Virus genome (UHGV): UHGV-0259231 | From: a virus | Length of the DNA: 28,453 nt | Direction: 5' to 3' (one strand) | In this document: one piece after another, positions 23,901-25,485 of the stretch | Layout of the letters: the number at the start of each line of letters is the position of its first letter | Numbering within the stretch: the stretch's first letter is position 1 | Made by a program: the position numbers and the translations under genes | Notes under the pieces: model-generated | Databases searched by the model: none | Told to the model about the DNA's origin: nothing | Seen by the model: only the letters and a program-made list of their open reading frames with translations

Positions 23901-24365
23901 CTACTTAATGCACTGAGTGCGGATATACTCCTGTGCCCCTTCCAGTTGCATCTGCATCGTCATCAGCCGCTCTCTGAGGGTGAAATAATCCCGTTCAGCG
24001 GTGTCTGCCAGTCGGGGGCTGGTTGCATTATCCACGCCGGAGGCGGTGGTGGCTTCACGCACTGACTGACAGACTGCTTTGATGTGCAACCGACGACGAC
24101 CAGCGGCAACATCAGCGCGCAGAGTTTCATTTTCAGCTTTCGCATTGGCTAATTCTCTCGAGTACTTTGCATCGAGCGCAGCAACATCACGCTGACGCTG
24201 CTGCATGTCAGCGATGGTGGCGATCGCCTGCTTCAGCTCACTGACTTTTTTATCACGCTGTTCTTTGTAGGCGATGGCGTTATCACGGTAATGATTGACC
24301 GCCCACGACAGGCAGACGATGATGCAAATAACCAGAGCATAAATAATCGCGGCGACTCTGCTCAC
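23901..24365 (-). CDS. Rz: Rz i-spanin
   Basis: …[33 protein letters not shown]… matches lambda Rz as remembered. GTG start at 24365 overlaps the endolysin stop (GTGA); the ORF-track start at 24380 is TTG. Confidence 0.9.
23963..24145 (-). CDS. Rz1: Rz1 o-spanin lipoprotein, embedded in the +1 frame of Rz
   Basis: [41 protein letters not shown]…: lipobox LVVVGC and a proline-rich tract, near-identical to lambda Rz1 as remembered. Entirely inside Rz. Confidence 0.9.
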
Positions 24366-24895
24366 TGATCTATCCCCCAACAGGCTAATGCGCTTTCCTG
24401 GTCACGACGAATAACCTGTCCATAGCAGTTATTTGAACGTATGCGGCAATCGCGCCCACCATCTTTTATCCACCAGCGAATCGCCTCGCATGCGCCCTTA
24501 CGATCACCGGCATTCAGCCGCTTATAAAACGTCGACGGGAAACACTTACCGGGGCCAATGTTATAGGGACAGAATGACGCTATACCCGCTTTCTGTGGTT
24601 CGGTCAGTGGTACTTTAATATTGCGCTCCACCCATGCCAGCGCCTTATCACGTTCAATAGCGTTAACCTGGTCGCATTTTTCCTTCGACAGCTTCATTCC
24701 CGGTATGACGGGCTTACCATCCACCATTGTGGCACCACGACAGATGGTCCATATGCCGGAACCATCGCGGTATGCCGTAGTGTGGTTACCCTCTTTTTCA
24801 TCCAGAAACTGGTCAAGTATTTGAGGAGCAGACGCGCCTGCAGCAATCAGCGCCAGAACCGCAGCTGACAGGCCGTATTTGATTTTTGCGCTCAT
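24362..24895 (-). CDS. R: SAR endolysin (T4-lysozyme-like muramidase with N-terminal signal-arrest-release segment)
   Basis: N-terminal weakly hydrophobic Gly/Ala-rich segment ([16 protein letters not shown]) followed by an E…D…T catalytic region ([22 protein letters not shown]), the pattern of phage 21 / P1 SAR endolysins. Confidence 0.88.
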
Positions 24896-24950
24896 GGATA
24901 TTTATCAGGATGCTACCAATGAAAGATACTGGAAAGCCAACTGCAAAAAG

Positions 24951-25265
24951 CTAACAACCTGTAATCGAGTTATCAGAACTGTTAATTTTTATGGTATACC
25001 GCGCCTCTGAACAGGGGCGCGTTTCTGGCAACAGCTCGTCCCCTTCACATAACCCGGCAGCAACATCCAGGAAGACCTGTCTGATGCTCCTTCTGGCTGC
25101 TGCCTCATAAAACTCCAGCGCTGCACCTTCAACACGGTCCAGCGAGATGTCCAGGTCAAAAATTTCACCGTCAAAGCGTTTTTTGTCCCGTAACGCTAAA
25201 GTTACCGTAACTTTATTCTCAAAATTGCGGATCCCTTTCACAATCAGTTCATAGTTTTGAGTCAT
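24951..25265 (-). CDS. YdfR-like small protein (DUF1327-type) between holin and endolysin
   Basis: 104 aa with a GGGGAGAG Shine-Dalgarno. The position between S and R matches ydfR of Qin-type prophages. The family assignment is from memory and unverified. Confidence 0.55.
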   Translation of the reverse strand: MTQNYELIVKGIRNFENKVTVTLALRDKKRFDGEIFDLDISLDRVEGAALEFYEAAARRSIRQVFLDVAAGLCEGDELLPETRPCSEARYTIKINSSDNSITGC

Positions 25266-25269
25266 TGAA

Positions 25270-25485
25270 TTACTCTCCCCGTGCAGCCTTACGCTTGTCT
25301 TCTCTGATTTTGAAGTACAGATTTGTCAGATAAGTCAGGAAGCCCAGAACCAGACTCCCCAGAACACCAATCGCAGCCCACTGTGACGGACTGACCTGAT
25401 CAAGCCACTGTAAAAACCAGTAGCCAGCACTGCCTGCGGAGGTGCCGTAGGCAATGCCCGTTGAAATTTTGTCCATGGATTTCAT
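25270..25485 (-). CDS. S: Class II holin / pinholin, S21 type, with dual-start motif
   Basis: 71 aa, [71 protein letters not shown]. The Met1-Lys-Ser-Met4 dual start and two TM segments match phage 21 S as remembered. Strong GGAGGTGAGG Shine-Dalgarno. Confidence 0.9.

Follow-up and report, generated by a model that had tools for sequence, protein, structure and literature searches.

A ydfR-family gene between the pinholin and SAR lysozyme genes of a lambdoid lysis cassette in viral genome UHGV-0259231

The DNA analysed here, hereafter the window, is the whole 28,453-nucleotide stretch of the virus genome UHGV-0259231. Five genes were confirmed on its minus strand between positions 23901 and 25485, where a preliminary description of the sequence had placed them, and the predicted proteins all gave strong Pfam and PHROG matches. 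For the holin, YdfR and Rz1, NCBIfam had no matching model. Annotated E. coli chromosomes in RefSeq carry this locus at 99.9% identity. In order of transcription, the cassette and a remnant lying within it are:

25270..25485, minus strand: S21-type class II holin gene (S), 71 aa (PF04971)
24951..25265, minus strand: ydfR-family gene (DUF1327), 104 aa (PF07041)
24910..24954, plus strand: 3' remnant (MLPMKDTGKPTAKS*) of a 79-aa antisense ORF, from sequence comparison
24362..24895, minus strand: gene (R) for an RrrQ-type GH24 lysozyme of 177 aa whose N-terminal domain is SAR-like (PF00959)
23901..24365, minus strand: Rz i-spanin gene, 154 aa (PF03245, E 2.4e-49)
23963..24145, minus strand: Rz1 o-spanin lipoprotein gene, 60 aa (PF06085, E 6.4e-20)

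This is the standard gene set of pinholin, SAR lysozyme and Rz/Rz1, plus ydfR. S and ydfR are separated by 4 nt and ydfR and R by 55 nt, while R and Rz overlap by 4 nt. A consensus scan of the minus strand found no promoter-like or terminator-like site inside 23901-25485, and S-ydfR-R-Rz is read here as one putative transcription unit. Several features lie upstream of the holin gene:

26297..26992, minus strand: Q antiterminator gene (PF06323 Phage_antiter_Q, E 1.8e-91; also annotated by RefSeq in the 99.9%-identical locus)
26285..26313, minus strand: candidate pR'-like late promoter, TTGCAA-17-TATATT, overlapping the Q stop (consensus scan only)
26210..26233, no strand assigned: GC-rich hairpin flanked on either side by T runs, a candidate terminator of the tR' type
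25778..26087, minus strand: array of four tRNA genes (ARAGORN; Rfam RF00005 x4; RefSeq annotation)
25555..25570, minus strand: intrinsic-terminator-like hairpin, GCCCGC TTTT GCGGGT followed by TTTTTCTTTTC (scan; putative function)

The Q gene belongs to the context of the cassette and controls read-through into it. The position of the promoter candidate agrees with the layout of Q, pR', terminator, tRNA and S annotated in phage 21. The hairpin at 26210..26233 lies just downstream of this candidate; it was listed by the scan on the plus strand, and its minus-strand reading, taken from the sequence, is GCGGGTTTTTTG. The tRNA array carries the anticodons CAT, Lys-TTT, Thr-TGT and Gly-TCC, the CAT tRNA being assigned to Met by ARAGORN and to Ile by RefSeq. 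The second hairpin is located 70 nt upstream of the holin start. Overall, we are nearly certain that the cassette forms the lysis block in the Q-dependent late operon of a lambdoid E. coli prophage.

The holin matched PF04971 with an E value of 1.4e-35 (121.5 bits, the cutoff being 26) and showed 70 of 71 residues (98.6%) identical to phage 21 S and 82% identity to K-12 EssQ. Its N-terminus, M-K-S-M-D-K, carries the dual-start motif that had been proposed from the sequence; the second start, Met4 at 25476, gives a predicted 68-aa form, and the phage 21 record annotates both products, as S21-71 antiholin and S21-68 holin. As read from the sequence, TMD1 spans approximately residues 7-25 and is of the Gly/Ala-rich type, and the C-terminal tail is basic. 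TMD2 covers approximately residues 36-58, with a KD19 maximum of 1.72 at residue 36. The two segments thus have the features predicted for a TMD1 able to exit the membrane and a TMD2 lining the pinhole. Because of the 98.6% identity to S21, this holin would be expected to form small depolarising pinholes, not large holes.

The lysozyme gave a PF00959 match with an E value of 1.1e-24 and retains the catalytic triad E35-8-D44-5-T50, which aligned with that of R21. It is 94% identical to K-12 RrrQ. Residues 7-24 are 61% Gly/Ala/Ser with a KD19 of 1.78, and an N-terminal ASA motif is followed by Pro. Proline after such a motif disfavours signal peptidase I. The N-terminus is therefore weakly hydrophobic, Gly/Ala/Ser-rich and predicted to be an uncleaved TMD, in agreement with the SAR assignment of the preliminary description, and by analogy the enzyme would be released from the membrane and activated upon depolarisation. 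Stx-phage lysozymes with an R21-like SAR N-terminus are likewise predicted SAR endolysins (PMC8136144). A dN/dS value for the lysozyme against Stx2a_WGPS2 was left out, as a one-codon indel makes the comparison invalid.

Rz starts with GTG at 24365, overlapping the lysozyme stop (GTGA); RefSeq annotates the same gene of 465 nt. An N-terminal TMD and a periplasmic coiled coil are predicted in the protein, as expected of a PF03245 i-spanin. Rz1 is, as had been described, nested wholly inside Rz in the +1 frame (24145-23963 within 24365-23901, frame offset 1) and lacks RefSeq annotation in the 99.9%-identical locus. It shows the lipobox VVGC and a mature part with nine prolines.

Since S, Rz and Rz1 are near-identical to their counterparts, we infer the lysis mechanism from phage 21 and lambda. 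Q-modified RNA polymerase would read from the pR'-like site across the tRNA array, pass the terminators and enter S, and the 68-aa pinholin and 71-aa antiholin would gather in the inner membrane. At a set time small pinholes would form and depolarise the membrane, freeing and activating the membrane-tethered SAR lysozyme to degrade the murein, after which the outer membrane would be disrupted by the Rz-Rz1 spanin. For the alleles in the window, the pinhole, SAR-release and spanin steps are thus ascribed by analogy.

As a genomic feature the locus brings nothing new: the cassette is a textbook set of pinholin, SAR endolysin and spanin. The S-ydfR-R arrangement is already known from Qin, Stx phages and Perceval, and RefSeq annotates a near-identical locus; it is ordinary, since K-12 and roughly 80% of complete E. 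coli genomes have ydfR at the same spot. Its description as an extra gene is accurate in that ydfR is present here and absent from phage 21, but not as an oddity, the gene being normal in Qin and in thousands of E. coli prophages. The remaining value of the locus lies in YdfR, which is among the most widespread function-unassigned prophage proteins in E. coli, is under purifying selection and, in that species, always occupies a late-transcribed position.

Family search placed the 104-aa protein in DUF1327/YdfR (PF07041, E 5.1e-39, 132.8 bits against a gathering threshold of 25), with residues 1-96 covering profile positions 1-90 of 93. It also matched phrog_2735 (E 3.5e-55), a family without an assigned function. 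The ORF has its own Shine-Dalgarno, as had been proposed: GGAG, 9 nt upstream of the start and within the last holin codons. The ribosome-binding site thus lies within the 3' end of S21, and a remnant of that end persists in Salmonella. YdfR is 11.7 kDa and acidic (pI 4.85), has no transmembrane segment (maximum KD19 0.75) and is predicted to be a soluble cytoplasmic protein. Its conserved core of approximately 72 residues has a beta-beta-beta-alpha arrangement in an AlphaFold2 model. A PDB sequence search with YdfR returned no match at E 1, and a Foldseek search of BFVD found none with an E value of 1e-3 or lower, so that the modelled core appears to be without a convincing structural relative. 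A dsRNA-binding domain was considered and rejected, the alpha-beta-beta-beta-alpha fold with a significant structural or sequence match not being found. In the literature searched, a single paper mentions DUF1327, and only in passing, and a lysis-timing report on BSPM4 ORF52 concerns a protein unrelated to YdfR.

Residues 1-74 are approximately 85% identical to K-12 YdfR, and over codons 1-74 dN/dS was 0.24 against K-12, 0.23 against a Stx phage and 0.28 against HannyBb; the tail gave 0.27 against Salmonella. ydfR is a real gene under purifying selection, with dN/dS of about 0.24. High variability marks the C-terminal part, where recombination joints also fall, and protein lengths are 103, 104, 114-116 and 176 aa. 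This variability, the many truncated or fused forms and the fact that phage 21 does without ydfR would suit a functionless hitch-hiking ORF, retained because its DNA joins the 3' end of S to the translation-initiation region of R. However, dN/dS is well below 1 in every comparison, and distant phages that have the gene at loci without S-R linkage retain the 72-residue core at 30-35% identity, which leaves this explanation with very little probability. Beside the tail lies the remnant of the 79-aa antisense ORF. Phage Perceval and Salmonella prophages carry the ORF intact; the window has a deletion of approximately 310 bp there. A two-gene module of DUF1327 and a convergent small ORF was also considered and rejected: the ORFs found after DUF1327 genes in four contexts (79, 86, 95 and 100 aa) showed no significant similarity to one another.

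Of 5426 complete E. coli genomes, 4343 (approximately 80%) contained ydfR-like DNA, at 8536 places in all and with up to nine copies. Among phage records, ydfR was present in 101 and an S21-type holin in 438. In Escherichia, Shigella and Salmonella prophages ydfR always occupies the holin/endolysin interval, with an invariant 4-nt junction to the holin stop or to a remnant of it, and where an S-R gap exists it is coding. Together with the predicted co-transcription with the lysis genes, this placement is compatible with a lysis-related role, in which YdfR would be a cytoplasmic lysis-timing regulator, antiholin-like or endolysin-restraining in the manner of T4 RIII or P1 LydB, with either the pinholin's C-terminal tail, which is basic and cytoplasmic, or the not yet released SAR lysozyme as its target. 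The acidic character of YdfR and the basic S tail would suit such a contact, and the Keio ydfR deletion was envelope-leaky (CPRG-positive) in a genome-wide screen, although this phenotype may reflect expression of the downstream SAR lysozyme gene rrrQ from the resistance cassette.

Several observations on distribution speak against this role. ydfR is missing from approximately three quarters of the phage records that have an S21-type holin, phage 21 and VT2-Sakai-type Stx2 phages among them. Salmonella ydfR follows a different holin family, PF16080. In Pantoea-type prophages the DUF1327 homologues still adjoin the lysis genes, but they lie upstream of the holin, and these phages have other holins and a different endolysin that is GH19-like by eye. 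Further homologues sit within tail or packaging modules: the DUF1327 gene of Salmonella phage ES18 is between tail genes M and L, and in other viral contigs the homologues adjoin HNH and small-terminase (TerS) genes. Distant homologues were confirmed by hhalign probabilities of 98.7-98.8% and by Pfam's own cutoff; a 76-aa homologue used as query gave no match among phage records. Lastly, dS against Perceval was 1.16 for S and 0.04 for ydfR, and the alleles of the two genes reassort freely by recombination. We therefore consider a lysis-timing role unlikely. Because of the Pantoea-type position upstream of the holin, the ES18 tail position and the absence from about three quarters of S21-holin phages, ydfR is taken to be accessory, and YdfR is quite likely not a core lysis protein. 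Overall, a lambdoid lysis block with ydfR as an accessory gene is the explanation that we somewhat favour.

The best reading of ydfR is as a mobile accessory (moron-like) gene carried in the late transcript. A rival reading would make YdfR a moron for lysogenic conversion or anti-defence: expressed from the prophage in times of stress, it would either benefit the host or block some function of the host or of a competitor that has nothing to do with RNase E or lysis. The moron-like spread over genome positions, the annotation of ES18 gp24 as a 'possible moron' with flanking terminators and the retention of ydfR in E. coli genomes are consistent with it. A CFT073 ydfR probe is also tabulated in a study that profiled sigma-S transcription in vitro, and up-regulation of the Qin cluster under cold stress is cited in PMC13232886. 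On the other hand, ydfR in the window has no flanking promoter-like site or terminator, YdfR gave no match to PADLOC anti-phage defence models at E 0.1, it has no known phenotype, and almost no ydfR reads were seen in K-12 RNA-seq under standard growth (PMC13232886). We regard such a stress-expressed moron as distinctly improbable.

The function of the 104-aa protein had been given as unknown. This is largely still so, YdfR being poorly characterised; the exception, and the only functional lead, is a 2026 study in which K-12 YdfR was reported to bind the N-terminal half of RNase E and to co-purify with RNA (PMC13232886). These data were obtained with overexpressed, tagged K-12 YdfR, a full-length fusion gave signal with Rne(1-597) only, YdfR overexpression altered few transcripts, and the authors were unable to exclude a contaminating protein as the source of RNA retention (PMC13232886). 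As a nuclease control for YdfR is unreported (PMC13232886), the contact with RNase E could be RNA-bridged. In the preferred reading of ydfR as an accessory gene, the core of approximately 72 residues would act on host RNA metabolism by binding RNA and/or the catalytic, N-terminal half of RNase E. We hold it possible, but only tentatively, that RNase E/RNA binding is the real role of YdfR; the association may be the biologically relevant activity, with an effect on late-mRNA stability or lysis timing. In its strongest form, YdfR would be a late-expressed RNase E modulator: altered turnover of the late transcript would shift the S:R:Rz balance and so change lysis timing. We think this doubtful, but if true it would reveal a previously unrecognised class of RNase E-targeting protein, prophage-borne and present in approximately 80% of E. 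coli genomes. The conserved core, the other genome positions and the ribosome-binding site in the S21 3' end narrow the hypotheses on YdfR.

Comparison with known systems places the two parts of the cassette apart. Phage 21 shares with the window S (with the same dual start), Rz (82% identical) and Rz1 (92%), and likewise has tRNA genes and terminators between Q and S. It lacks ydfR, and its S and R genes abut (2501-2716 and 2716-3213 in the phage 21 record), confirming the adjacency stated in the preliminary description. R21 is only 34% identical to the lysozyme of the window, so that the designation as a phage-21-type cassette is right for S, Rz and Rz1 and does not extend to the lysozyme. 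DNA homology to phage 21 ends exactly at the S stop and restarts at the Rz start, and the ydfR-plus-lysozyme block is of the Qin/Stx-phage type.

The Qin prophage of K-12, a defective prophage, has the same gene order, essQ-ydfR-rrrQ-rzpQ/rzoQ (b1556-b1553, b4689), and the same 4-nt S-ydfR junction; the holin (82%), the YdfR core (approximately 85%) and above all the lysozyme (94%) are close to those of the window. Its spanin is of the unrelated DUF2514 type, and its YdfR ends in a different C-terminal tail; ydfR and rrrQ overlap there, where the window has the 55-nt gap. Stx2a_WGPS2, BP-4795, H-19B, Stx2 phage 86, YYZ-2008 and Perceval also show the S-ydfR-R order and junction. Perceval YdfR is 100% identical to that of the window, and Perceval retains the antisense ORF deleted here, while the Stx-phage YdfR alleles are 114 aa long and 54-57% identical; in Stx phages R and Rz are often separated by an ant gene. 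ES18 gp24 belongs to the same Pfam family, DUF1327, and has the same core of approximately 72 residues, but is located among tail genes outside the lysis cassette. Among other small phage proteins, T4 RIII and P1 LydB are cytoplasmic antiholin factors, and the phage proteins phiKZ Dip and T7 gp0.7 target RNase E or the degradosome; as functional analogies only, these make both roles conceivable for YdfR.

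The window corresponds to a lambdoid E. coli prophage with its genes read on the minus strand in the order DUF968, RusA, Q antiterminator, four tRNA genes, lysis genes, HNH endonuclease, small and large terminase, portal, capsid, tail genes, J and side tail fibre. The five genes of its lysis cassette are real:

25485-25270, minus strand: holin, 71 aa (PF04971, E 1.4e-35)
25265-24951, minus strand: YdfR, 104 aa (PF07041, E 5.1e-39)
24895-24362, minus strand: lysozyme, 177 aa (PF00959, E 1.1e-24)
24365-23901, minus strand: Rz, 154 aa (PF03245, E 2.4e-49)
24145-23963, minus strand: Rz1, 60 aa (PF06085, E 6.4e-20)

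The preliminary description of this cassette was correct in its observation, and its interpretation was supported. More specifically, the holin proposed to be of the dual-start S21 type has an M-K-S-M N-terminus and shares 70 of its 71 residues with phage 21 S, while the SAR-type N-terminus ascribed to the lysozyme was found as a hydrophobic Gly/Ala/Ser-rich stretch at residues 7-24; the catalytic triad E35-D44-T50 is also present. As had been described, Rz1 lies entirely within Rz in another frame, here the +1 frame; its lipobox is VVGC, and the GTG start codon of Rz shares bases with the lysozyme stop (GTGA). The ydfR start is found 4 nt after the holin stop, and the Shine-Dalgarno attributed to this ORF between holin and endolysin was located as a GGAG within the last holin codons. 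No recognisable Shine-Dalgarno was found in the 25 nt before the lysozyme ATG (attggtagcatcctgataaatatcc; window 24896-24920, minus strand). The last ~10 nt before this ATG are common to the window and K-12, whose ydfR and rrrQ start overlap.

Upstream of the cassette, the end of Q carries a pR'-like site; then come a hairpin, the tRNA array and, 70 nt ahead of S, another terminator-like hairpin, an order matched by the annotated layout between Q and S in phage 21. The tRNA genes (25778-26087, minus strand) are CAT (Met according to ARAGORN, Ile according to RefSeq), Lys-TTT, Thr-TGT and Gly-TCC, whereas those at the equivalent position in phage 21 are Asn and Thr. A sigma-70-like site (TTGCAA-17-TATTAT, 26125-26097) lies immediately upstream of the array. 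Simple scans of the minus strand inside the cassette returned no promoter-like or terminator-like sites, and no terminator was found between the lysis genes and the HNH gene. Downstream lie:

23508-23858, minus strand: HNH endonuclease gene, 42 nt past Rz
22878-23360, minus strand: P27-family small terminase, next after the HNH gene

Such a pairing of HNH and terminase genes is typical of HK97-like cos packaging modules.

Based on the near-identity of S, Rz and Rz1 to those of phage 21, the phage 21/lambda pathway was adopted for the cassette. By analogy, the genes would be transcribed late in a Q-dependent manner, the pinholin would set the timing together with its dual-start antiholin, the membrane would be depolarised, the SAR lysozyme would be released and activated, and the spanin would finally disrupt the outer membrane.

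A family search assigned the 104-aa protein to YdfR/DUF1327, in agreement with its earlier description as YdfR-like. YdfR has a computed mass of 11.7 kDa and pI of 4.85 and, having no hydrophobic segment, is cytoplasmic. Across the family (products of 103, 104, 114-116 and 176 aa) the first ~75-85 residues are conserved but the tail varies; K-12 YdfR is ~85% identical over residues 1-74 and diverges beyond. The ydfR gene is under purifying selection: codons 1-74 gave dN/dS values of 0.24 against K-12, 0.28 against phage HannyBb and 0.23 against an Stx phage, compared with 0.06-0.12 for the holin and 0.05-0.09 for the lysozyme (three valid comparisons). For the last 24 codons of the 104-aa-type tail, dN/dS was 0.27 against the Salmonella allele, a value drawn from few sites. 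This selection signal argues against ydfR being a functionless hitch-hiker, which we disfavour and rank last among the readings considered.

Full-text searching of the literature identified one substantive study of YdfR (Gopel et al., RNA Biol 2026, PMC13232886). There, an RNase G-baited two-hybrid screen caught fragment 1-72 of the K-12 protein, signals with RNase E being stronger; the full-length protein gave signal with Rne(1-597), and Rne(1-598) co-eluted with Strep-YdfR. Abundant DNase-resistant nucleic acid was present in the eluted material. The study reports no nuclease control for YdfR, so RNA may mediate its contact with RNase E. Few transcripts changed on overexpression, and expression of ydfR was very low during normal K-12 growth (PMC13232886). 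The gene also appears in supplementary lists of the envelope screen of Paradis-Bleau et al. 2014, cited in PMC13232886. We do not take that phenotype as evidence of function, because rrrQ, the SAR lysozyme gene downstream, would be driven by a resistance cassette put in place of ydfR, and this alone could explain leakiness. One table of a study that profiled sigma-S transcription in vitro lists a CFT073 ydfR probe. The best-supported reading is that YdfR would act in the cytoplasm, as an accessory protein targeting RNase E and/or RNA, its RNase E step being suggested by this single orthologue study.

The position of ydfR in the cassette would instead suit a cytoplasmic regulator of lysis timing, the reading we rank second. 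However, most phages with an S21 holin have no ydfR (the phage collection holds S21-type holins in 438 records and YdfR in 101, at constant spacing after the holin wherever both coordinates are listed), and homologues are located elsewhere. Profile searching recovered core-only stand-alone proteins of 72-76 aa and one tandem duplicate, with hhalign probabilities of 98.7-98.8%; all except the duplicate passed the Pfam cutoff, and judged by these matches, they are true YdfR homologues. The duplicate, the distant homologue P0187 (176 aa), appears to contain the DUF1327 core twice in tandem, while P0132 (287 aa) and P0123 (206 aa) have long unrelated C-terminal extensions.

The DUF1327 gene of a Pantoea genome, like that of a related viral contig, lies upstream of the holin, preceded by a putative Q-like ORF or a putative HicA/HicB pair; the holins and endolysins differ, one endolysin being GH19-like and the other GH24-like (both assigned by eye, as was the HicA/HicB pair). 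Two viral contigs have the gene in the tail module, between tape-measure and tail-tip genes, and four more have it flanked by a glycosyltransferase-like gene and HNH/TerS genes. In Salmonella phage ES18 it lies between tail genes M and L, and gp24 is a "possible moron" in the depositors' annotation. A lysogen-expressed moron with a different target is the reading ranked third.

A closer homologue (67% identical) is found in Salmonella prophages, with a PF16080 holin on one side and a GH24 lysozyme on the other. Here the 40 nt before the ydfR ATG still code for S21-type holin C-terminal residues, followed by a stop and 4 nt (remnant at L006 2940-3003), despite the functional holin belonging to PF16080. 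The S21 3' end thus includes the ribosome-binding site of ydfR, and the two moved as one unit. Against phage Perceval, dS was 1.16 for the holin and 0.04 for ydfR, so that holin and ydfR alleles recombine independently. Together, the varied positions, the S21 remnant and the allele reassortment point to YdfR being a mobile accessory gene housed in the late transcript, rather than the partner of a particular holin or endolysin.

Relative to Perceval, a deletion of ~310 bp in the window has removed a small antisense ORF that lay between the ydfR and lysozyme genes. The 55-nt spacer (window 24896-24954), read on the plus strand, keeps the last 14 codons (MLPMKDTGKPTAKS*) of this 79-aa ORF, which is intact in Perceval and in Salmonella prophages (L007/L008 3309-3548, minus strand) and whose product had no match in Pfam or PADLOC. 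A small convergent ORF follows the DUF1327 gene in four different genomic contexts (minus strand, locus coordinates):

L002 (Perceval) 3812-4051: 79 aa
L010 3479-3739: 86 aa
L015/L017 4240-4542: 100 aa
L024 (ES18) 3766-4053: 95 aa, gp25, annotated "possible moron"

As these ORFs have no detectable mutual sequence similarity, their recurrence may reflect chance or moron clustering.

The YdfR family is tiny, with 260 clusters at 90% identity among 5.8 billion proteins (those with named organisms all from Escherichia, Shigella or Salmonella) and 79 representatives at E 1e-3 or better among 1.84 billion. Within E. coli, ydfR-like DNA occurs in 4343 of 5426 complete genomes, at 8536 places and up to 9 per genome, so the arrangement is common and already annotated. 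The 1.8 kb around the cassette are 99.9% identical to chromosomal loci in several RefSeq E. coli strains, labelled class II holin, YdfR family protein, lysozyme (rrrQ) and lysis protein; the embedded Rz1 (window 23963-24145, minus strand) is intact in one such locus, L014, though left unannotated by RefSeq/PGAP. The cassette is therefore ordinary, the ~310-bp deletion being its sole departure from a common arrangement.

Comparison with known systems revealed a mosaic. Homology to phage 21 DNA, whose record annotates the S21-71 antiholin and S21-68 pinholin, spans the holin, ends exactly at its stop codon and restarts at the Rz start (Rz 82% and Rz1 92% identical), whereas the ydfR-lysozyme block between them differs. 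With K-12 RrrQ the lysozyme shares 94% identity, against 34% with R21, and the Qin spanin is unrelated to Rz/Rz1. The cassette thus combines phage 21-like S, Rz and Rz1 with a different ydfR block carrying an RrrQ-type lysozyme. The order holin-ydfR-lysozyme-spanin is the same in the K-12 Qin prophage (essQ-ydfR-rrrQ-rzpQ/rzoQ), in Stx phages, in HannyBb and in Perceval, whose YdfR is 100% identical to that of the window.
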